From assembly GCA_000934665.2 (NCBI GenBank), contig JYFJ02002649.1, positions 1 to 53,205 on the forward strand: a DNA stretch of 53,205 nt. The letters are read 5' to 3'. This DNA is from Catajapyx aquilonaris. Lineage: Eukaryota. The position numbers were made by a program, and so were the translations under genes. Within the stretch, counting starts at the first letter, position 1. Each line of letters begins with the position of its first letter. Below the pieces are notes generated by a model, which did no database searches, had not been told where the DNA came from, and was given only the letters and a program-made list of their open reading frames with translations. Shown in pieces: positions 2 through 48,955 of the stretch.

Positions 2-292
2 ACCAACTCGTCCATCAGTGTCAATCCTGTGGTGCCTCATGTTCCAAGCTTCTTCCTGATGGACCCAGCGTCCCAACTGGTTAAGATGCTACAACTTTTG
101 AAGGACCAGGAGGTGTCGGATCTGCAGAAGGAGGCTCTGGACTCTGTGGCGGATTTTCTGGTGCAGACCAAGAAGGACGGAACAAACGCCTCGCTGTTGG
201 AGCCCATCTTGTCCTTTCTTCCCAACATCTTCCAAGGGTTTGGCCTTTTCGCATTGGTTTTACTTGAAGAAGGATTCAGTTTCTCGGGATGA
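2..292 (+). CDS. Secreted helical protein family member 1 (last exon only, 5' end outside window)
   Basis: The frame is open from position 2 (TNSSISVNPVVPHVPSFFLMD...EEGFSFSG*). It aligns end-to-end with the C-terminus of the 414-830 exon (LMD, PIxSFLP, QG, EAFTFAG vs EGFSFSG). AATAAA lies at 309-314. Confidence 0.8.
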   Translation, partial: TNSSISVNPVVPHVPSFFLMDPASQLVKMLQLLKDQEVSDLQKEALDSVADFLVQTKKDGTNASLLEPILSFLPNIFQGFGLFALVLLEEGFSFSG

Positions 293-413: not shown

Positions 414-1244
414 TTATCCAGCAAACGTAAATGCTTCAGTGAGTACAGCAGACAAGAACGTGCCAAGACCTTGCATGACTGTAGGCAAAAACGATGAGAT
501 CGGTCCAAATAGTCTGTCTTGTATGCCGACGTCCCTCGATGTCTGTATGAAAGTGGATAAGACATCCAGGGCATTCCTTTGGTCCAGAGGTATGTTGTCC
601 GCTCTCAAGATTTCGCTCATCTTTAAAAACTGCGTGGGTAAGTCCATCAACACTAGCTGTGGCAGGTACGCCATGACTCCGGACAAGTTGAGGGAGTTGT
701 CCACAAGACCCCTGACAAACACATCGACAGAGTTTGCCACCTGGTCATTGACGAACCCTGACTCGGTGACCATTGTCTGCAAGGTGTTGATGGTGTTGTT
801 GCGTACTGCTTGCTCCAAGCCTGAACTGATCTGTAGGAGGAAGGACATGTCAGATGTCAAACAGAACAGTTAGTATCGTTTCGTGACGTACCGTAGGATT
901 ATTGTTCAGAAACTGCTGAACTCGTGTCGTGTTGCGGAGGGAGTTTGCAAAAGCACTGCCCAAAAGTCCAGCCAAAAAGGGCCTTCGACCATCAGTTCTT
1001 GTTTCTGAAGTTTTCAGGGTCTCATCTGCAGGCATACACTGGCGACACAAAATTATATCACATTGTAATTCAATAAATGCAATTTGTTAAGTGCAAAATT
1101 TTGGAACGCATGATTATTTCTATCAGTCTCAAACTGCTATAATAGCAGCTGTGTGTAAGACCAAAGTTAATATAACACTGTCCTACTACTTACATTCGCC
1201 AATGAAAATGTCAAAATGATGAACACCGTGGACTTCCGTGCCAT
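414..1244 (-). CDS. Secreted helical protein family member 2 (~204 aa, 3 exons)
   Basis: Exons are 1244-1194 (MARKSTVFIILTFSLAN, signal-like), 1038-892 and 830-414. Both introns are GT-AG, phase 0. Minus-strand AATAAA lies at 410-405. Confidence 0.85.
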
Positions 1245-1749: not shown

Positions 1750-2318
1750 TTAAAGGTCAATATCCTCAATGACATCCACAATCCCTCCAATCATCTCAGA
1801 CATCCCAGCCACCAAATCAGGCGTCTGCCTAACAATGTCCGTAACTTGCGCCAAGTCCACAGAGCTGAATATGTCCAGCATGGCATCCATGGCTTCAAAC
1901 ACAAACCGTGGTTCCCTCAGATGCAACTTCTTACGAAGCAATACCAAAAAATTAACCAGCTGTTCTTCCTTCGGTTGCTCCATAAGAGTAGATAGGTTTT
2001 CAACAACACCGCTGTAGTCCAATGTATGTTCCTGGGTGGCCTTGATTAGATCCTTGATGTACCTGCTGTTGGCATGTAATTCCTCCATGTCCACTGAGGT
2101 CAGGGCAACCAGAAAATGGTACAGGTTGTCATTTAGTTGAGATTCTACCTTGCTGTACAGATTCTTTTCTTCAGCACCTTCTACTATGTTGGCAGCTTCC
2201 TTATTAGGAAACGCCTAAGAAACAACCGTTAGTGTTACCAATATTGTTTTCAAACAGTGAGACTTACCTGGGATGAGTGCTGAAAAGCTAGGAATGCCAA
2301 AACGAATAGCACCTTCAT
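1750..2318 (-). CDS. Secreted helical protein family member 3 (~171 aa, 2 exons)
   Basis: Exon 2318-2268 encodes MKVLFVLAFLAFQHSSQ and ends at a GTAAGT donor. Exon 2214-1750 starts AFPNKE. Minus-strand TATAAA lies at 2366-2361. Confidence 0.85.
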
Positions 2319-2793
2319 GATTCGTACTTCGGATGTAACTTAGGTAGTGGCAATCGGGGGTTTATATTAGGCAATATATATCCGGAAATACTGGGATTCC
2401 CAGAAATGATGCTACATAGTGTCCCATTTCCCCCCCACGTGTCTAAACAAAAGCTCAAAGTTGGTATTGAGGGTGACATTTATTCTCGTTTGGAGACAAT
2501 ATTCACATGAATATGAAAGTGGGTATTACCCTACAATTACAATGAGAATGATGGCTTGTTTAAAATGGTATGTACACATGCGGTTTTTACCAAGGGGAAG
2601 TACATAAAAAATGACAATATAGCGTCGCAACAGTGTAACACTCTGGTAACTACTTGACTCTAGTAATTATCATCAGAATTTACAAGCAACAATAAAATGT
2701 AACAATTCGCATGTCGTCGTCATCACGCAAAGTTCGGATAGAAAAAAAAGGCAACAATACTAATACTGAATCATGGTTGTGAGCACATTGCCA

Positions 2794-3516
2794 TTATTCT
2801 TCCTTGTCCTTCTTCTTGTTTGACCCTCTTCCCAGGATGTCCCCAACTCCCCTCAAGATATCAGAAAGTCCCTCCAGAAGATCCGGACTGGCATCCACCA
2901 AATCCTCCAAGAAATCCAGGTCCAGGCTGTCGAAGAAGTCGAACATGTCCTCAATCTCGTCAATGAAGAACTTGGACTGACGATGACCACCACGTCCTCT
3001 TCTCAGCAGCTGGAGAAACCCTAAAGTACGACCAGCTTTGCTACGTTGTCTCATCAGACCTGGAAGGCCCTGGAGAACCACATCGTAGTCGGCCACAGAC
3101 GAAGATCCCTGGAGAAGCTGCTGGAGCTGACGTGAACTTCGACGCACCTTTTCAGGTCCTCTTCTGCTCATGTCGGACAAAAACCGAAGGAAGTTCTGGT
3201 TCAGCCTGTCCTTCACACGTTGATCTTCAGAGCTTCGTTTCTCCAAGTGGTGTTCATTCCCCAACGATTTGGACTCCGACAACTATAAAGACAATGCACC
3301 CCTCGTTACTGCTATGGTAAGCCACTTAGCCAGATAGTTTTATAGTCCATTGTGTCCGACTATGCCTAACTAGGTTAAGCCTGAATAATAAGGAGTGTAC
3401 AAGTAGGGCTCAATAGCTACGTGACTAACAATAGTGAAACATATTTAAAAAATAATACTCACATGACTGATGGTGATGGCACAAATAATAGCCAGAACAA
3501 TGTGCAGAGCAGACAT
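2794..3516 (-). CDS. Secreted helical protein family member 4 (~180 aa, 2 exons)
   Basis: Exon 3516-3463 encodes MSALHIVLAIICAITISH and ends at GTGAGT; the second exon is 3282-2794. It is similar to member 3 (LNQNFLRFL/LNDNLYHFL; SPDLLEGLSDIL/TPDLVAGMSEMI). Minus-strand TATAAA lies at 3635-3630. Confidence 0.85.
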
Positions 3517-5319
3517 GTTGGGCGCACTTGACAGTGAAACTGAGTGTTGGGCAAGAGGTGGACACTGCTTGAAGAGTACCTTTTCCCGCACTTTCACTGA
3601 ATGGTGACCATGGCCTCTGTCTTGGGCGATTTATATGTGCAGCCAGGTCCGCCTAGTAGGAAGCCAAGGAAAACGGAAGCTACCAAAGAGAAACGAACCA
3701 ACTCCTCCCACCATACCTTTTTTTTCGGTGTTTTTGTCTTTATAAGGATGTTCTCCTTAGAAGGAAGAATTGCGTCCATTGGATGGCAGCTGAATACTTG
3801 ATTACCACTTATCGTGACCGGAAACTTTTCGTACGGCTTCGAGGATTTTTTCCATTCCAAGTATTCTTCAATGTTCCTGCATCCGTGCCAGTTTTAACCG
3901 GTATTGCGTAATTCTGATCCACAATTACTATAGGTGATTTCCTTCCGCATTTTGGAGTTATGAAGATTTTCAGTTTTGAAGAATCATATTTGACTTTCAA
4001 TTCGACGAAATCCTGTTGCACAACGTATAACCAGTGTAGATGTATACACTTTTCTTGCATACTAATGATTTTTTTGGGAAATCGTACTGTTGTAATACAT
4101 CATAGGTGCAGCCATTAAGAATATTAAGTGCCACATTTTGTATACATTTCTGCAGCTAAAGGTGGTGAATAAAATGTTATAATTATTGGCGAAATAATTT
4201 ACGTTCAGCAGTGGACTATTTGGAGGCCATTAAATGGCAATAACACTATATGACAAGATAAATTCAATCAATGACAATCCATACTACTAGCCCCATAAAT
4301 AAGTAAATAAATAAAGCAGCTTTTGTTTATGCCAACAACATGTACTTTTATTCAAAAAATATTCAAACCTACATACACTTATGTCAACTGGATACTACAA
4401 TAAAAAAATAATGACACGCAATAAAAAATTATGAAAAATGCTTCTCATGAATAATCTCATTATCTGTTTCATGATCAGTCTCGTTATTGGCATTGACCAG
4501 ATACTCCAAGTGCACGTAACTCGTTTGTTGCAACACATCTGATGCAACCCATATTGTAAACCAACAAAACCTGCTCTTGAAAATGACTGTTTTTTTTTTC
4601 CTCACCACCCCGGCTCCCTTGAACCTCCCATCTAAACAATAGATTGAGCAACTGTTATGATGCCCAACTCCCTAGTTGCACCTTCCGGCAATACACAAAA
4701 GCAATGATTTGTACCCCATTTTGACATCTCGAAAAACTTGAAACTTTCCAATCATGTTTCGAACCACACGCTACACCTAGGGTATGACACGATGTCGGAA
4801 GCGGAACATATATAGAACAATTAATTGATCAGAATTCATCTGGAAAACAGCCGGTACAGTCGCATGTGTATTATGCAGGCATGTTATTCAACAACCACCT
4901 TTCTCCTCTTCCGTCAGGATTGCGCAACAACCATGGTAATAATCAAACACGTGAACAATCCCACTGACACACTTGGACAAGCCAGAGCCTGTAGGTGTAG
5001 TTGAACCCTGCTGGGCCAATTTACATGTGAAAGTATGACGGAGAAAGTGAAAGGAGTGTGTGGTGCTTTGGGAGGAATTACTGCACCGGATAGACACCCT
5101 GTTATGTCGATATAGTCCACAAAAATTAAGCCTGGTTTTGTCAGGATGATCGGAAGTTGGCGGAAGAGAAATTCGAGAGAGCAGGTTCTTGATGACAGGT
5201 ATTGGACAATCGTTTGTTGAACTTGAGGTGTCCTACTTTTTCCTGATGGAAAACACGACAAGGGTCAGAGGTAAAAATGTATACTAAGGTGAGATCATTT
5301 TATTAGGTCGACAATGCAA

Positions 5320-6207
5320 CTAACTGTAGCTGTACAGAAGGTAGTCTTCTTCTTCTTGAGTGAGTCGCACTTGGTTTAGGGCATCGAGTAGGTCTGGTAC
5401 TAGGTCGTCGGTACCACTCTGCTGGCTGCCACTCAGGGAACCACTGAGGGAACCACTGTAGGAACCACTGAGAGAACCTTCTTCTTCCTTCTTCTTGTTG
5501 GACTGTTGTTTCAATGCGGCCAGGGACACTATCAGGTTCTTGATGTACTTGTCGCTGTCACGGTCTCGGTCGCGTTCGGATCCTCTGGAGCTGAGGGAGT
5601 CGATGAGGTCAACGGCGTCTCTGGCACCGTCGAACAGGTCAGGCACGATCTGGATGATGCTGTTGACCAGCTCCAGGACGTCTTTAGCCTCCACGTCCTT
5701 AGATAGGTTCTCCAAGAAACCAAGGAACAATCGAGGACGACGGTTGTTGCTGTGGCCCAAGACGTTCAGGATGCCTACCAACTGACCAAGTCCTGGTTAC
5801 ATCACTGTTCGTTACTGAGAGAATAAGCCATACTTGCCTGCTCAGCCAGGTCCGATTTGGCAAAAGCGCTGAGCTGCGGAACAGCCGAAGAGATGTCGAC
5901 CTCACCGTCGTTGATGGCATCACGCAGTTCTTTGAGGGTCAGTCGAAGCTTACGGGCAGCTGGGTGCTTCAAGTCCATCAGAAGGTCGAACACCTTGATC
6001 AGGTTGGTCTTCACTGCAGAAGCCACTTTTTCAGTCAGTAGTTTCTTGGCTTCCTCTAGTTTTTCAGGTGCAATTTCCCGTCGAGACCTGGGCAGGCTCT
6101 GTGTAAGGACAATTAGTTTCAGGACTTCCAACTTAAATAGGGGGTAATCTTACGTGAGAACAGGAAATGCAGAGCAGAAGACACACGAGGACGATTTTTG
6201 TCGCCAT
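5320..6207 (-). CDS. Secreted helical protein family member 5 (~258 aa, 3 exons, Ser/Gly-rich tail)
   Basis: Exons are 6207-6154 (MATKIVLVCLLLCISCSH), 6098-5838 (SLPRSRR...LAEQ) and 5781-5320. The second intron is probably GC-AG. Minus-strand TATAAA lies at 6258-6253. Confidence 0.8.
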
Positions 6208-7221: not shown

Positions 7222-9358
7222 ATGTGGAAAAGGATGGAGACTTATTTGTCACCGAGGGTCAAGTATTTGCTGGTGGACATTGGGCAGGATGCGGGTGAGG
7301 AGGACATGTCGCACATGTTCACAAGCAGGCGCACCTTCAGGTGGTCTGAAGTTCAGAGTCTGATGGGTTCGTGTAAGTTGTGTGGGTTTGTATGGCATCC
7401 TGCAGTATTAATCAGTATTGTGTTAAAATTAAGGCCAGTGCGCTGACAATGAGAAAAGATGGGAAGAGGCAACGAGACAGATTACGCCACTGCTGAGGGC
7501 GACGGAGAGGATGTTGGGCGAAGCTGATTCCCATGGACTTGATTCGCTTGTTGAGCTGTGCAGTTGGACACATGAGACTGATCTGGTTAGGAAGTGCTGC
7601 GGATTAATATTGGAGCCAGGGACAACTGGGCTGTTGGAGGCAACTCTGCTGCTTACATCTCTTTTGGAACGATCGCTTGGAAACGTAAGCGTTGTAATCA
7701 TACTCATGGCATATGATTTTAGTTGCAAAGAATATTCATGAATAGCCAAGAGAAGCTGCATTAATTTGAAGAATTTCAAGCAAACTTGAATTACCTCAAT
7801 GCTAGTTTGCAAGCAAGCACTTGCATTTTTTTCATTTGCTGGGAAAAGTGATTACTACAACCAGCTCTTGCTACAACCAAATACAGCCTAAACCTATTTT
7901 TCATTTCTGTTCATAACAGGTGTTCCTAATGAAAGGTAGGCAAGTTCCATCGCTTATTCGAGACCTTCTGGCCACTCCAGAACTTGCCGACATTTTTGGA
8001 CAAACTCCTGTAAGTCAGAAGTGTATCCTGGCAGTGCAGGCCTCTAATGTTTTCCTCTTGAACAGATGGAATTCCTGCAAGTTTTGATGGGGTCACCACT
8101 GTCGCTCAACCTTCGAAATGTGACCTGGCATGGATTCATTCACCCTGGTGAAATCCTTCCTCACCTACCATGCAGTCTGATCCTAGCAGCAGCCTCGCTG
8201 GGAGAATTAATCCTTGGTGCATCCATCCCTCGACGGGAATACATATCATTTCCTCAAGCATCCGTCTTGGAGATGCCAAAAGTCACTGAGGAGGAAGCCA
8301 ACGTAATTGTGAACTTGCTGGACCCAGATGTTGCAAAAGTGGCATTGAGATATTTCTGGGACCACCAGTATGGTTACTGCTTGGTGCTGCTACTTCCACA
8401 ACTAGAACACCTGCTCCGTTGTGTGTTTGCTGCTCAGAATGGCTGCCCTGAACGTGTCTTAACTGCTGAGGCAACCAGTCTGTACACTACTTTAGATGAA
8501 ATATTGGCAGAGAAAATTTTTGACAATGTTAACCAAATTAGGACATTTGTGGGGGATAGTACACTCGAGTTGTTGCTAGACTTGTTTTCATATCCTGATG
8601 GTCCAAGGATACGGGATAGGATAAGCCATGGCGAGTACAACTTGGAATGTGTGCCTGCAGAAGTATGCAATGCTGTTGTCATAACTACATTACTTGTGTG
8701 CACCAAAGTGTCAGGAGAGACATGCAAACACTCAGGAACATACAAGTCATGTTTTCACTACAGTTGCAGAGCAAGAGATGCCATTGCAAATTCCTGGCAA
8801 GATCTGAACCAGTGCCGTGTCACATTTCCAACTGCAAATGAGTTTCAATACAGTACTGTGAATTTGCAATGCTACGTGACCGCCCTTGATCAACAAATAA
8901 GTTTGTTGAATTCACAAAATGTAGAAGAGGCACTGCTAAATGCTAACATGGAGACATTATATAGGTCAAAGCATGAATCGAAAGTGTTGAATGCACTTAC
9001 TCAAATTGCAGGACATGTTAAAACCATATCAGGACATGTGAAAAGTGGCATGGAAGAAAAATACAGTGCGCTTAAACAGAACCAGTTACGCCCCAGGCAT
9101 AAAGTGACGTACAAACACATGCTGGAAGTTGTTCCCATTCTGCAAGTGTGGCTCAAAATAGTAACAGTCACCTGTGCATATCGCTGTGTCCACGTAAACA
9201 GCAACAACTCTGAAACACATCAGCAGGTAATGAAAAAACTGAAGTCCATATTGAAGCGTGTAGAAAACCTGGTTTCATTTACGAATCCCTCCAAAAACAG
9301 ATGGAAGGAATGTCACTCACTAATTACATCAGAGTATGTTATTGGACAGAGCTCCTAG
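7222..9358 (+). CDS. ERMARD: ER membrane-associated RNA degradation protein (ERMARD/C6orf70, DUF4209)
   Basis: Exons are 7222-7372, 7434-7684, 7920-8009 and 8066-9358. Motifs include TYLSP, LERSLGNV, LNLRNVTWHGF, LLPQLEHLLR, AEATSLYTTLDEIL and GPRIRDRISHGE. Confidence 0.9.
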
Positions 9359-25992: not shown

Positions 25993-28437
25993 ATGGCAGA
26001 CGGAAAAGGACGATGTAAAGGTGTGGGGCACAGTCACTTCAGAGAAAGGGCTGGGATCGTACGTACCATGGACAATGCAGAGGATGTCAATGTCGGAGGC
26101 GTCACCTGCTCAACAACTGGGAAGCAGGTTCGAAAAACTAAGAATAAAGCAACGGAAAAGTTGAAAAGGTGAGTTCTTCTAGCAGACATCCAGACATGGG
26201 CAATAAATGACACTACTGCGTTTACCATCCAGGTACGAAGATCCTGGTCCAGGACTCGTTCCAACCTGCGAGCATGGGCGGCAGAAAGTGTTTGAATGCA
26301 GCAAATTCTCAGAAGAGGATGTGGAACACTTTCATAGAGACTTCTGGAGAAATAAGACTTGGAATATGACCAGGGGAGATTCCTGTCGGCATACATTTTT
26401 GCATGCGGCACGAGGCATGATGACAGCAAGAGGAAGACCTTCGATGCCAAGTATTTTGGCAGGTTGAAGTACTTGGTTCGGATATATGCAAGACTGCTCT
26501 GATTAACATGCTGAACATCAAGAAGTCCCGCCTTCCGACCATCATTAAGGGACTCCACAAGGAAGGTGCAGCACCACGGGATGGTCGGGGGTGGTATCCA
26601 GGGCGATCGTGCGGAAGACTGTCGAGAGTCCGCCGTAAATGCGTCATTAAGTTTATAGGTGCGTGTGTCATTTACTGTGCGGAAAACGAAACTACGATCT
26701 GACGTCACCGTCACACAACAATATGAGTAAACAGTGTCAACAAAAAGAACATTGTTTACTCCTATATTGTTGCATGAGAACAAAATGATGATGTCAGAGC
26801 GTCGTTTAGTTTTCTGCACTTTATGTACCTAAATAGCAGCAGAGCCTGTTCTTTCCATGGCCAAATAATAGGTAGCCGTTTCATACCAATTTCATTTCCA
26901 TTTTATACCCATTACATAAGGGCAAAGTTTGTTTATTTTTTTTGTTTGTCCAGGTTTGGTCACTATGGCAAATAGATGTCCATGGCTATGTAACCTAAAA
27001 TGGCCATGAAATGGACAAACAAACTTTGCCTTTTACACTATAATTGTACAAGATTAGTGGTACTTATGGCATCAAAGAACCCGTTATAAATATCTTGATT
27101 TTTCTCTTTACAGGTAAACTGGAAGCCCGAGAAAGCCATTATGGATGTCAAAAACCTGCCAGATAGTATTACTTGCCAAGTGAGCTGCAGAATATAAAGA
27201 AAATATGGAAGATCTACTCTGACTCAGTGTCAGTGCCGGAGAGCAAACAAGTGTCATACTCTACCTTTCGCAAAATTTTCAATGAGAAGTTCAACCTGTC
27301 GTTGACATCTTCCAGGAGCGATCTGTGTCCCACCTGTACGCTGCTCCTGGAGAGAATCACCTCGGGAAATACAGATGAAGAGAAAGTGTCTTTCATGACA
27401 GAAAAATGTGTTCATGTTTGCGTGCAAAAGCATTTTACGCAATAATGAGGGAAGGTGGCGAAGATCCTCAAACTGTATGTTTAACATTTAGCTGCATGCA
27501 AAATCAGGTGCTTCCGCGTGTCCCGGATCAAGCTGCCTACTACAGTCAGCAACTGCATTTGTTTGTGCTGGGAATTGTTCGTGTCATGAGTGATGGTAAC
27601 ATGGTCAAAGAAAATGTTCACAGTTATGTCTGGTTAGAAAGTGAGGCTGAAAAAGGTAGCTCTGAAATAGCAAGTGCTGTGAATGATAGGCTCATGAAGA
27701 TTGATTACACTGGGAAAGAGAGAATCTTACTGGTGTGTGATGGATGTTCCCGACTGAATAAAAATTCCACTATGTTGAGCATGGTTTGCCAATGGATGAC
27801 GGTTTTTGCACCAAGTCATGTCAAAACATTGGAACTGCTCTTCCCCGTAACTGGGCATTCATTTCTGCCCTCGGACAGGGCTTTTAGTGTTTTCGAGAAA
27901 AGCATTTGCAAACACAAGGCAATAATAGACCCACAGATGTATTGCAACATATTAGGAGAAACGGCAACAGTTCATCGTTTTGGATGTGATAATGACAGTG
28001 GGTGGGTCGCGGAAGACTGGAAGAAGTTTGCAGACGAGCACTGCAAGGCACCTCTTCCTTTCATGGAGACTAAGCGTATTTTCATAATGAGTGGCCACAC
28101 TGTACTTGTCGAAGCAGAACAGAATTATCTCTCCCTTCATAAAATGAATGGGGTGGACATTGCGAAGCATGGACAAGCTTGGAGCAGGCAACCACTTTTG
28201 AAAGCTGTCCCAGTCTCTGTGAATCATTCAAAGTTACATGACGTTGCTGATCTGCTCTTAAAGCACTATGGAGCAAATTGGAAGGACTTGGACACCCTGA
28301 AGTATTATCGGCAATGTATCAAGAAGGCTGACAGTCATGAAGCAATTGAAATGCCTGATCAAGATGAGCAACATGGAATCAGCGCTGCAGAAGGTGAATG
28401 TGCATGCCTCGATGATGAGGTCAGCAACTTTGTTTGA
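25993..28437 (+). pseudogene. Intron-containing DDD/E transposase pseudogene, Sola-like
   Basis: Motifs include ESHY, YLPSEL, DLCPTC, RAKAFY, YYSQQL, DGCSRLNKN and GHSFLPSDRAF. GT-AG introns lie at ~26169-26232 and ~26659-27113. An in-frame TAG occurs near 27164 and a frameshift near 27415. The superfamily call comes from recalled motifs. Confidence 0.7.
26917..27035. repeat. Small inverted-repeat element (MITE-like) in the transposase intron
   Basis: TAAGGGCAAAGTTTGTTT at the left pairs imperfectly with AAACAAACTTTGCCTTTTA at the right. Confidence 0.5.
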
Positions 28438-28694: not shown

Positions 28695-28751
28695 GAGATC
28701 AGGGAAATTGCAAGAGATCAGGGAAATTGCAAGAGATCAGGGAAATTGCAA
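28695..28751. repeat. Tandem repeat, 19 bp x3
   Basis: GAGATCAGGGAAATTGCAA occurs at 28695, 28714 and 28733. Confidence 0.9.
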
Positions 28752-32200: not shown

Positions 32201-35200
32201 CCCAGATCCTCCCAGAAGTCCTTGATCGGATTGGGGTCCAGAGATCAGCTTGGCCAGTCTGTTATGGCCACCCTGTACTGGTGCAGCCAATGGCTGACGA
32301 TCGCGGAGGAGTGCTTTGGGTTGTTGTCATGCTGGTACAGTAGAGATTGGCCAAAAGCACTCCTTGCATATGGCCACACGACTTCTTGGAGGATATCCCT
32401 GCACACCTCCTTGGTCAAGATACCTACAATTCGGTGCAGGAGATCGATTCCAAGAGAGCTGAAGCAGCCCCAGACTAGAATGGATCCCCTGCCTTGCCTG
32501 TAGGTCGGCATCCAGTGCTTGAGATCGAATTCGTCACCTTTGGGACGATGAACGTAGTCTATGCCATCAGTTCCAAACATCAGGCTCTTTGATTCGTCTA
32601 ACCAGAAGACTTCGCACCACTGTCTCTGTATCCAGTTGAGATTGGGCTGCTTCAGCTCTCTTGGAATCGATCTCCTGCACCGAATCGATCTCCTGCAGGG
32701 ATGTCCTCCAAAGTCATGTGTCCATATGCAAGGAGTGCTTTTGGCCAATCTCTACTGTACCAGCATGACAACAACCCAAAGCACTCCTCCGTGCTAATCC
32801 ACACTTGGCTGTACCAGTAGAGGGTGTCAATAATAGACTGGTCAAGCTGATCTCTGGACCCCAATCCGATCAAGGACTTCTGGGAGGTCATCTGAAGAAC
32901 GAAAGAGCATCCAGTATCACCGACAAGTACAAGCAACTGGCGGTCGAGTGGAAGAAGATCTCACAATCGGTGTTGGACAAGTTGGTCGCCTCAATGCCTC
33001 GCAGATGTCAAACTGTCACCAACGTCAAGGGTTACCAGACTAAAGTACAAGATGTGAGTGATTAGCTTGTCTAATTTTGTAGCATTTGGTTGAGTTTTCA
33101 GAATGTTACAGTTGTTTGAAGATTTTGTTTAATTTTGAAGTACGTGAAAAAATAAACAAAAACATTGTTTATGTTTCTTTTACAACTCAGAAATTCTTCA
33201 AATCTGACATATTCTCATCAAATGCCTTAGTGCATAGCATGTTAAAATTTCAACTAAATCGGATAATGCTGAAAAAAGTTATGCCCAAACAACAAAAAGG
33301 TGATATAATTATGGGCTACTACTGTATGTGTGGGTTTTCTCAGATTTCCCCCATTTCCTTCCACAATCAAAATCCATCTTAAAAAGACCTTAAAATGCCC
33401 CAGCATGCATATCAGGGGTGTCAAGATTAAAGGACAGTGAAGCCTGTATTTCCATGAATTTTTTTAACAATTCTAGCTCGCACTGTTCTCATTCATACCA
33501 TCATGTAGCTCTCACATCAATCTCCTACTCACCATTCATCGTCATCAGGTATTTCCTCTAGTGGTGGGTTCAAGCAGTAAATGTGGTATGGATCATCACA
33601 CTCATCACAAAGCAATTGCTTCGCTGCATCTTGCTTTCCTTGGCAAATCTTACAACCACACTTCCTGCACTTCCTGCCAGGAATATCCCTGCACGCATTG
33701 CATCTAGGGGCACTTGGACGCCTGGACACAGCAGGGGCTTCGATACTGCTCCCTTCACTTCGTTTTAACGTGGGCTCAACCCACAAGACCTCCTTCCATG
33801 ATTTTATCTTGCACCCTTCCATGGCCACATTGTCAGAGCCAGCATGAGCTGTGACCACCAGCTCCTTGTTGGTGCGAGTGTTGGTCACAGAGGTCACTTG
33901 GCACTCATACCAAAAGCCTCGTTCTTCAGGGTTTACCACATTGTAGTTGGCCAAAATTAAGCTTCCTGGATTCAGCTCCTCTAAGGTGGCCATTCTGTGG
34001 GGGCGAGGGCGGACATCCGGAAGGAGGAGATGGTAGTTGTATTCTCCATATCTAAAGAATAAGTGAGGATGAGCAACACACTGCAACTGCCAAATCTTGA
34101 TTTTAACATATGTAAAAGTAGGATGACTGAATAAACACATATCATTAACATGGGCAAGGAAAATCTAGATTTACAGCTGAGGTAATGATCCAACATCAAA
34201 TGTTTACATAACTTACGCATCAAATTTTGTGATATAGATGCATCCATCCTTAAGGTCCTTGTTCAGACCCTGACGCTGCGGCAAAATCTCACCCTTGGGG
34301 TTCTTCTTGATTCGAACTACTACGCCTTCAAACCATGCTCCAAAGCAAGGATCTCGGCAGTCCACCTTATCACCAACCTTATAATACTCGCTCTCACAGT
34401 CTTCTCCTGATTCATCATCATCTGAATCATTATCTTCATCCTATTTCAGAATGGTACAATAAACAACTTGATCAAAAGTAAATGGTACAGTGAAACCTGT
34501 GTATTACGGAATCGCAAGAGACCCTAAAAATTTTCCGTAATGGATAGGTTTCCATATTCAGATCAAGGACATTACTAGAGAGGAAAATGGGGAGAGCAAA
34601 AATAAGCACAGTCTTACCTTCAATATGGTACAAAATCAGTCCACCACACACTTTTTTCCGCGAAATTCTGTGCCTGTTGCGGAAACTTTCCAACCACCCA
34701 TTTGAAACACTAACTTTTGCCATACCAAGTTTTTGGGCTATTAATTTTGCCTATTCTTTTGGACCATCTGCCAGGACACGAGCAATACATTGAACTTTTG
34801 TCAACCCCTTCCTCTTCCCTGACATTTCAAAATTGGACTGAACAGTGAACTGGAAGGCAGGGCACCTACGAATCACAAGTCACAATCTTCTTGGCCCCAC
34901 AAAAATGCCGCATCTCTGTTTCCCAATCAAAAACAGTCCCCTTTCCTCTCTAATATCTTCAAGGTGACTGGTTGATAGCAATTCCAGCAATTAGGAGACA
35001 CAGTATGGTGAAAGGACGGTCAAAAAAGGGTTACTCAGAGGCTTCCTGGGAGGCCCGAGAGTGAACCCAGTTGTAGTTTCTATTTTTGTGACTTGCAGGA
35101 GATAATGTGAACCTTATGATTTCCGTTATGAACGAAGGTTTCCTGTGAAGGGAGACAAAATAATATCCCTTCCGTTTCCGCATTGGGCAAGTTCTGTGCT

Positions 35201-47131: not shown

Positions 47132-48955
47132 CTAGCAGGATACCCGGCGTTGCTCGGGTTATAAAATACTTTTCCATAGGAGTGACTCATTGATTTGGAC
47201 CTTTGCAATACACCTTAACCTGGGCCTCGTCTGGGACTGTGTCCACAGAACAGTGGGAAGGACCAGGTAGTTGGTTGAGGAGTTGTGCGTTGATGAGATT
47301 GCTCTCTCACACAACCAACTGTGCCTCTGGTAGTTGAGGCAAAGATTGGGAAAGACCTTAAATTTTAATTCATCGACAGAGGACACCTTCGTACCGATCA
47401 ATCCCATGTCAACATTTCCTATAGGGCATCGGTTCTAAATTGGCCATTTCCTAATTTCAACAGGTCACATGCAAATTCCTCTGAGTAGTAGTCACCAAGC
47501 AGATAGGTCCTCATGTTCGTAGAGAGATGGAATTTTCTAACATGAGTCCAGAGATAAGAAGACTTTAGGCAAGCTTTTATCTCATCGACTCGTGTGCCTC
47601 GTGGAACAACAGGCAATGTCTGTCTGAAGTCCCCAGCCAAAACCAAAGTTACTCCACCCATAATCTTTTTGCTTTCCCGGATATCCTGCAGTGTCCAGTC
47701 CAGAGCTTCAAAAGCTGCTTTGTGGGACATTGTGCACTCATCCCAAACAATTAACCGGCACTGACTCAAAGGTTGTGCCACCCCGGTACCCTTGCTGATG
47801 TTGCACCTTGCATTTTCCTGTGTAGCTACATTTAGAGGAAGTTTGAATGCTGCATGCGCAGTCCTCCCACCAGGCAAAAGAGTAGATGCTACGCACCGAA
47901 GCAGGTTGGTGTAGGGGTTAAGGAGCCAGACTGCTAATCGGGAGGTCCTGGGATCAAATCCCCGGGCCGGCAACTCTGACCGTGGTTTTCTGTGGTTTCC
48001 CACGGTCCCTCCAGGAAAATTCCGGAGTTGTTTCCGTAATTAACAGGCCACAGCCGCTTCCTTCCTTCCCTATCCCTTCCCAAAAAGCGAAGCAAAAAGT
48101 AAAAAGACAAGAGTTCCTGACAAAAAAAATTTGGGATGAACTCCCCCCCTAAGAGAGCCAATGGCTCTATCACGGGGTAAATTATATATAAAAAAAAAAA
48201 GATGCTACGCCAGAAGAGGCAACCGCAAGTGCAATGTGTTGATCCTGACGAACTTTTCCCAACAACAGATTAGTCACATATGTTTTACCCAGTTCCTCCT
48301 GGTGCACCAAGGAAAAAAACTCCACCTTTCTGATGACTCTGGACATTGTCTACAATATATTGTCGAATAAGCAGATCTATGATCCGGTAGCAACTTTGGT
48401 TCATTAAGAGCAACTTCTCGCGACGTTTTTTTTTTTTTTGTACATATATTAATGAAATGTCGATTGTTAGGGAAGGGGGTGGGGGGGGTGGTTGTGGGGA
48501 AGAGGGTAGGGTGGGGGTGGGGGCATGGAACCAGCATGGAACAGGAGGGGGCGGGCGGATGGAGGAGTGCACGGGAAGGGGGAGACGGACGGGGGCTTTT
48601 TTGGCGGACGAAGAATATATGAAAAGGCCTGGAGGTGGCGGCATGAGGAGAGGGTAATGTGACCAAAGTGGATGTGACCCCGTGGGCCTTGAGAGAAGGA
48701 AGGACCATTTCCATGGCAACTTGTTTATACCAATATGCGGATTATTAGAACAGGGGGCCGAACTCCCAGAGTCCTTTCCGCCTCCTGTGGCCAAGGATGA
48801 CCTCGGAGGTCAATTCCAATGTGCTTAAAACCTTCCCAGTAAAAAACTACCCCTAGTGATACCCCTGGGGCATATGTGGAGGCCTCCGTATGGAACTGAT
48901 GAGGTCACAAAAGACAGACAGACAGACAGATATAGGTCTTAAAATATGTATTAGA
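47132..48955 (-). mobile_element. Non-autonomous Helitron carrying a PIF1-helicase fragment
   Basis: On the minus strand the 5' end is a|TC (48955), followed by (CTGT)n. The 3' end has the hairpin CCCGAGCAACGCCGGG and CTAG|t (47132). Helicase motifs are GAPGGTG (frameshifted), ASSGVASTLLPGGRTAH, LIVWDECTM, LAGDFRQTLPVV and LSTNMR. Confidence 0.9.
47895..48199 (+). mobile_element. Full-length SINE family A inserted in the Helitron helicase
   Basis: An 11-bp TSD AGATGCTACGC sits at 47884-47894 and 48200-48210, with a tRNA head and an A-rich tail. Removing it restores ASSGVAS|TLLPGGRTAH. Confidence 0.92.

Follow-up and report, generated by a model that had tools for sequence, protein, structure and literature searches.

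The window analysed here, all 53,205 nucleotides of Catajapyx aquilonaris contig JYFJ02002649.1 (positions 1-53,205), contains a cluster of five genes, numbered m1 to m5, that are paralogues of an unnamed arthropod family of putatively secreted, cysteine-free and predicted all-helical proteins. Their relatives, in which it forms part of an Arg-Gln pair, support the presence of a conserved processing-type arginine in the loop between predicted helices 4 and 5. The reading that we favour, at a probability of roughly 0.45, is that a convertase clips this loop in an extracellular matrix or lipid-binding protein whose two halves stay together. The first-pass annotation of the DNA had instead proposed that the site releases an anionic, membrane-active peptide; the lasting result is the family and not the peptide. 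The cluster, found with matching gene order and orientation in one or more other animals, has no Pfam entry, named homologue or recognised fold in the searches that were run, and genes that stay clustered in this way, with Osiris as the classic example, often have a structural or developmental task in common. Should the Arg-Gln pair act as a maturation switch, a single mutation and a single N-terminus would give direct access to a class of arthropod extracellular proteins that has yet to be studied, and if the peptide proposal were true, the product would be a large, anionic helical effector of an unusual kind behind a folded prodomain. The family appears undescribed: no paper on it was found with a keyword search, which is blind to unnamed families, and the D/E subfamily, the best conserved one, lies outside the protein-database searches, which may therefore have missed annotated relatives.

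Gene models, relatives and cluster order

The DNA of the window is of a compact animal type with short introns. Genes m2 to m5 lie on the minus strand and have open spliced frames with GT-AG introns of 53-180 bases, and each begins with a short signal-peptide exon. The members, with their assignment to the A/B, C and D/E subfamilies, are as follows.

5320..6207, minus strand: m5, 257 amino acids, exons 6207-6154, 6098-5834 and 5774-5320; helical, predicted secreted, A/B-type by profile and tree
2794..3516, minus strand: m4, 180 amino acids, exons 3516-3463 and 3282-2794; helical, predicted secreted, C-type by a profile built from outside sequences only
1750..2318, minus strand: m3, 171 amino acids, exons 2318-2268 and 2214-1750; helical, predicted secreted, C-type by profile
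414..1244, minus strand: m2, 204 amino acids, exons 1244-1194, 1038-892 and 830-414; D/E-type, its loop without a basic site
2..292, plus strand: m1, last exon only, in a convergent arrangement with m2 like that of genes E and D in locus L003; D/E-type, without a basic loop site

The pairwise identity is 28% between m3 and m4, 19% between m5 and m4, and 34% between m1 and m2. An N-terminal hydrophobic stretch, identified by hydropathy only (KD9 2.2-3.7), is present in 4/4 complete window genes and 18/18 outside proteins, and cysteine is absent beyond residue 25 in 22/23 proteins, the remaining protein having one. Pfam returned no family at threshold among seven window exon translations, three homologues and the pieces of cluster genes from the loci.

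To identify relatives, a profile of m3 and m4 was compared with 1.84 billion representative proteins, which gave three proteins at E 0.001 or better, and a wider profile matched 11 proteins among 7,961 candidates (P0022-P0032). None of these homologues has an informative name by exact look-up, one being labelled "hypothetical protein". The single-sequence search with m3 gave 20 candidates and none at E 0.01 or better, the sequence searches of the PDB gave nothing credible (best E 0.013, to a designed protein, and best E 0.24), and the ESM Atlas returned two rows for m3 (0.80 and 0.77) and no usable row for P0023, which speaks neither for novelty nor for absence. Seven loci were confirmed out of 125 pattern matches in a metagenome scan. 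The counts leave aside P0025 and P0026, which nearly duplicate P0024; P0031 and P0032, which are incomplete calls for L003_C and L004_C; L002, which matches a portion of L003 at 100% identity; and L001, which is the same protein as P0023. Scans for the D-type pattern in prokaryote genomes and for the C-type in viral contigs confirmed 0/31 and 0/50 matches, respectively. One of 249 D-type matches in viral contigs, L008, was rejected as an alternate frame inside a large open reading frame, which we take to be capping-enzyme-like.

The window genes m5, m4, m3 and m2 follow each other on the same strand with m1 inverted, and L003 likewise has family genes A, B, C and D on the same strand and E inverted, while L006 has B, C and D, flanked by unrelated genes. 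Profiles built from outside sequences only gave 26.5 bits for m5 with the A/B profile (at most 3.7 for the other window rows), 40.7 and 39.9 bits for m3 and m4 with the C profile, and 107.8 and 45.5 bits for m2 and m1 with the D/E profile, with 5.0 bits or less for reversed controls. The tree places m5 with A/B (96/96) and m1 and m2 inside D/E (96/97), whereas m3 and m4 are sisters to C at 90/84, a node that is not starred and has long branches flagged. Since the profiles and the tree match the gene order, the internal order of the cluster is conserved, but the flanks are not. The putative orthology of m3 and m4 to their relatives is assigned from the tree and the gene order. D-type proteins from different loci are 68-79% identical. 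The reading frames of L001 and L005 are uninterrupted from the signal peptide onward, like spliced transcripts, which suggests that these relatives are expressed.

Gene content differs between the clusters, with one A/B and two C genes in the window and two A/B and one C gene in L003; the gap between m5 and m4 (3520-5320), where L003 has its second A/B-type gene, has no match to the family profiles. L007 (649-1428) encodes a chimera-like protein, C-type in its N-terminal segment and D-type in its core, and so links the two subfamilies; the first intron of the gene apparently has a GC donor. L004 has a degenerate, stop-containing partial C-type copy (1069-1366) upstream of an intact gene. The 90% cluster of L005 is represented by P0034, an unrelated-looking protein of 40 amino acids, which is probably a clustering oddity. 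Two short frames lie upstream of the cluster in L003 (1-961, minus strand), one with a signal-peptide-like start, and neither matches Pfam or the family profiles.

Two of the window proteins carry segments of their own. Exon 2 of m2 (892-1038, minus strand) encodes an extra N-terminal segment with RR, then Pro, and then a hydrophobic, weakly cationic stretch, and it sits where outside C-type proteins have a coiled-coil-like extension; a Pro directly after RR argues against a cut. The tail of m5 (5320-5500, minus strand) is without counterpart in the family and combines a run of Arg-Asp, the block Lys-Lys-Lys-Glu-Glu-Glu, repeats of Ser-Gly-Ser-Leu and an end rich in Tyr.

The basic loop site and its conservation

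The candidate processing sites in the window proteins are listed below.

1906..1917, minus strand: internal site of m3, R117-E-P-R120 followed by F; from motif scan and model, which places it where the coil joining helices 82-95 and 103-118 ends (exon-2 numbering)
2971..2982, minus strand: internal site of m4, R119-Q-S-K122 followed by F; retains the Arg-Gln pair conserved in outside C-types
5731..5742, minus strand: internal site of m5, R118-R-P-R121 followed by L; in the helix 4-5 loop, from motif scan and alignment
3235..3240, minus strand: N-terminal dibasic KR of m4, followed by Ser; from motif scan
6078..6089, minus strand: N-terminal RSRR of m5, the sole strict R-X-[KR]-R site in the five window proteins; from motif scan

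As the first-pass annotation had described, the internal motifs of m3, m4 and m5 occupy the same aligned position, with their P1 and P4 residues sharing a column in 3/3 MAFFT modes of an alignment with 18 invariant columns out of about 160. Aligned triples of such motifs would be expected 0.0007 times if independent (0.006 within one column), a figure that is post hoc and concerns homologous proteins. The N-terminal KR and RSRR are also present, the latter lying beyond the interval 1750..5781 to which the annotation was attached. Convertases cut after (K/R)-Xn-(K/R) with n = 0, 2, 4 or 6, and one listed substrate carries Phe after the cut (PMC8310232). All three internal sites fit (K/R)-X2-(K/R) and only that general motif, and none is a strict furin site (0/3). 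In m4, an RxxR motif (RRGR) ends seven residues ahead of the proposed cut, and in m3 and m5 the Arg that aligns with the conserved Arg of the relatives is the first Arg of RxxR.

The proposal had named loss of the basic site in orthologues as its refutation, and the site is retained. An Arg-Gln pair is located 10-14 residues after helix 4 in 11/11 outside C-types, as compared to 3-10% of the 12-residue windows elsewhere in the same proteins. The 11 proteins represent about seven independent lineages, since four of them resemble each other at 88% or more, or close to it, and a further pair at 80%. The junction is KR|Q in 4/11 of them and matches strict R-X-[KR]-R in 0/11. Apart from this pair, the loop is conserved less than any other region (0.25 identity). 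The site is absent from the four outside D/E proteins and from m1 and m2; these D/E-type paralogues retain an Arg near the column in a non-cleavable-looking context such as R-I-P or R-L-P. In the A/B-type proteins (L003 2338-3291 and L006 4131-4796), Arg-Gln pairs are enriched in other loops, with 13 observed versus 3.8 expected; they often stand beside acidic runs and may be further processing sites. A Gln that follows a furin site is modified to pyroglutamate in Drosophila Baramicin (PMC8423362), and R|Q is plausible as a processing signature, though only on the strength of this analogy.

An alternative is that the loop is never cut and is instead an exposed variable loop, the basic residues of which bind an acidic partner or surface while the protein works as an intact bundle. 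The lack of strict furin sites at this position in the window proteins and outside C-types speaks for this, as do the Arg in its non-cleavable-looking D/E context and the local composition of m4, where 25% of the 12-mers are equally basic (net +3 or more) and the N half is basic throughout. We nevertheless consider an uncut loop unlikely, given that Arg-Gln has been kept in about seven lineages while the rest of the loop has diverged, and that such pairs are enriched in the A/B-types as well.

Predicted structure and the proposed fate of the two halves

The AlphaFold2 model of m3 from a 19-row alignment is all-helical, with a predicted local distance difference test (pLDDT) score of 76 and a predicted template modelling (pTM) score of 0.69; the first model, from a 2-row alignment, was unusable (pLDDT 46). 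In the model, the basic stretch is the coil that connects helices 82-95 and 103-118, the next helix scores 83-85, like the N half, and the piece after the site makes up helices 5-7 of one bundle. The Pro that opens the last helix is kept in 23/23 proteins, and helices 5-7 hold to their hydrophobic register in every subfamily, including the paralogues without the site. The stretch from helix 4 to this Pro comprises 38-44 residues in 18/23 proteins and 165-201 residues, with low-complexity sequence, in 5/23, the inserts (120-160 residues) being rich in Thr/Pro, Gln or Asn-Gly-Gln-Tyr. Such variation in length with retention of the Pro and the register is how a surface loop of a folded domain behaves. 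One such protein is encoded by the full-length C-type frame in L005 (43-1185), where the loop after Arg-Gln has about 150 residues with Asn-Gly-Gln-Tyr/Phe repeats.

We favour the view that the family consists of secreted, cysteine-free proteins built on a bundle of about 130 residues and about seven helices, that their genes have stayed closely clustered, and that the proteins are probably produced together. After secretion, a short N-terminal propiece may be removed in m4 and m5; in m5, the RSRR motif points to a cut that would release a short propeptide. In the m3/m4 subfamily and in m5, a secretory-pathway convertase or a trypsin-like protease would then cut at the conserved Arg in the helix 4-5 loop, and in the relatives a cut at R|Q would leave an N-terminal Gln that is able to cyclise to pyroglutamate. 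The acidic three C-terminal helices would stay packed on the usually basic N half, which would make the cut a maturation step of a folded protein. The net charges of the N half and the C piece are +12 and -12 in m4 and +5 and -12 in m5, and the core N half has a net charge of 0 to +5 in 11/11 outside C-types. The most likely role for the product would be that of a co-assembling component of the cuticle or another extracellular matrix, possibly with lipid bound in the bundle. This role is suggested by the low-complexity inserts, by the 68-79% identity of the D-types and by TATA boxes, which are present within 400 bases upstream in 11/14 genes (background 0.15 per 400 bases). We regard as possible, if somewhat unlikely, a version in which the paralogues assemble with each other and the Arg-Gln cut is a switch that allows basic and acidic halves to re-pair within or between paralogues, with the loop displaying species-specific low-complexity inserts.

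Several observations weigh against a clipped protein whose halves remain associated. The last helix of m3 (132-153) is poorly modelled (pLDDT about 48-55), and the packing of the two halves is inferred. No cysteine is available to hold the halves together, and those of m3 are both acidic (-5 and -10). Conservation is lower in helices 5-6 than in the N half (0.30 versus 0.46 identity in nine C-type rows). The residue after the conserved Arg is Glu in m3 and Arg in m5, not Gln, and most of the outside R|Q sites consist of a single basic residue or KR, with RxxR in 0/11, which makes the protease uncertain. The matrix role is read from composition only. A complex prediction for the N half and C piece of m3, in which the alignment was unused, gave no answer either way (score 0.01, mark 0.34).

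The proposal of a free anionic amphipathic peptide with antimicrobial or lytic activity, for which the N half would be a conserved, charge-neutralising prodomain, follows the logic of cathelicidin-like precursors. In its favour, the basic site is conserved, the N half is better conserved than the C half, and the downstream segment is acidic as claimed, both in the window (51, 58 and 136 amino acids in m3, m4 and m5, with net charges of -10, -12 and -12) and in 11/11 outside C-types (-3 to -10). The start of the piece is modestly amphipathic. The first 13 residues after the cut have hydrophobic moments (muH) of 0.44, 0.52 and 0.47 in m3, m4 and m5 and exceed their shuffles (p 0.019, 0.028 and 0.043), but they rank only 32/141, 55/150 and 49/227 among the windows of their own proteins, and as 18-mers the p-values are 0.07, 0.11 and 0.57. 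Amphipathicity at the start appears no greater than elsewhere in the protein. Upstream of m2 and m3 there are loose kB-like sites (2/14 upstream regions; background 0.17 per region), but strict kB sites were found in 0/14, and the kB-like motif is not enriched across the window (82 versus 108 expected). Furin-released, pyroglutamate-capped immune peptides are described for Drosophila (PMC8423362).

The Phe-rich character of the putative product did not survive comparison with the relatives. Phe accounts for three, five and two of the first 13 residues in m3, m4 and m5 but for 0-2 in the outside relatives, so that the F-rich N-termini are particular to this genome. The predicted N-termini FVFEAM, FFIDEI and LFLGFL are also unlikely, since the conserved junction is R|Q and a new N-terminus would likely be Gln. 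Moreover, the pieces after R|Q are 46-50 amino acids in nine outside C-types and 174 and 188 in two, so that together with the window proteins they range over 46-58 or, in three proteins, 136-188 amino acids. The C-types of L005 and L006 have long low-complexity sequence after the site and not a helix, and the same helices are present in paralogues that lack the site. Insect antimicrobial peptides (AMPs) are mainly positively charged (PMC10059942). Taken together, we find a membrane-active product decidedly unlikely.

A signalling role for the released C-terminal piece, neuropeptide-like or from a reproductive gland, would agree with the signal peptide, the KR|Q or R|Q junctions and the predicted pyroglutamate, all of which are typical of peptide-hormone precursors, and KR|Q is present in 4/11 outside C-types. 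The compact C-types have no second delimiting site or amidation signal, however, the precursor is a predicted folded bundle and the paralogues lack the site, and we consider this role highly improbable.

Fold searches with the m3 model gave no match at or below E 0.001 in the PDB or viral libraries, and the best Z among 48,161 chains was 5.6; the lack of a match is no proof of a new fold. The best four Foldseek rows were all TIPE/TNFAIP8 proteins (E 0.08-0.25, TM 0.40-0.43). VIA aligned the model to TIPE/TNFAIP8 proteins with Z 4.5-5.0, a root-mean-square deviation (rmsd) of 4.3-7.1 and 116-140 aligned residues, all below Z 8; the best of these rows was TIPE3 (Z 5.0, rmsd 4.3, 117 aligned). 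Apolipophorin-III gave Z 4.8 (rmsd 4.1, 109 aligned). These values tie with those of unrelated bundles such as LemA and bromodomains. TIPE proteins possess a lipid-binding cavity (PMC6219514). The proteins of the family could mainly be soluble carriers of lipids or small molecules with a hydrophobic cavity like that of TNFAIP8/TIPE or apolipophorin-III, which the cut opens or regulates. The E and Z values remain short of significance, and there is no sequence or Pfam link from the Pfam and PDB sequence searches; we regard a carrier as quite improbable.

Comparison with known systems and neighbouring sequence

The family would work like a convertase-processed secreted proprotein, which is a known kind of system. 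Similar to the precursors of Baramicin A, attacin and apidaecin, its members have a signal peptide, as judged by hydropathy, and basic sites. The Baramicin peptides share with the relatives a Gln directly after Arg (PMC8423362), but several of them, some in tandem repeats, come from one precursor with RXRR sites, where here there is one non-canonical loop site. The putative product differs from Baramicin in being acidic, 46 amino acids or longer and placed in a folded bundle, and there is no sequence similarity. More generally, the type of site, the product length (46-188 amino acids) and the charge (-3 to -12) do not match furin-released AMP precursors. Anionic antimicrobial peptides do exist, so that an acidic product makes such a precursor less probable without excluding it.

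The resemblance to Osiris is an analogy in genome organisation only: signal-peptide proteins in a syntenic cluster, with conserved blocks set apart by spacers that vary (PMC3284338). The two-Cys region is absent, and DUF1676 (PF07898) was unmatched by Pfam in the window exons and homologues. No clear transmembrane segment was identified (body KD19 <1.6 in 21/23 proteins), and AQXLAY was not seen by eye in the sequences inspected. The family accordingly departs from Osiris in three of the five defining features listed for it, together with the combined transmembrane/AQXLAY test (PMC3284338).

The likeness to TNFAIP8/TIPE consists of an all-helical domain of similar size in the model, with a match that falls short of significance (E no better than 0.08, Z no higher than 5.0). 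Members of the family have predicted signal peptides, whereas TIPE proteins are found inside the cell. Apolipophorin-III and the MA/G12 (Bla g 1-type) proteins are secreted, Cys-poor, amphipathic helical arthropod proteins of 150-200 amino acids. Neither was matched by Pfam at threshold, and the Z of 4.8 is background for helical bundles.

An ERMARD-like gene (8048-9358, plus strand, likely with upstream exons from about 6600; DUF4209, Pfam E 1.5e-14) lies head to head with m5 and was not seen beside the cluster in the retrieved portions of L003 and L006. Other neighbouring frames include those that we take to be BRE1, a tektin and an F-box protein. For one exon of a UHRF1-like frame, the best matches come from crustaceans, insects and molluscs and reach only 35-43% identity, indicating that no close relative is annotated. 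The frames at 27379-28437, 32245-32751 and 47419-48809 resemble transposon proteins, presumably including a Tc1-like transposase and a PIF1/Helitron-like helicase. At 28702-28749, a 10-base motif is present three times with a spacing of 19 bases, which is probably a small tandem repeat.

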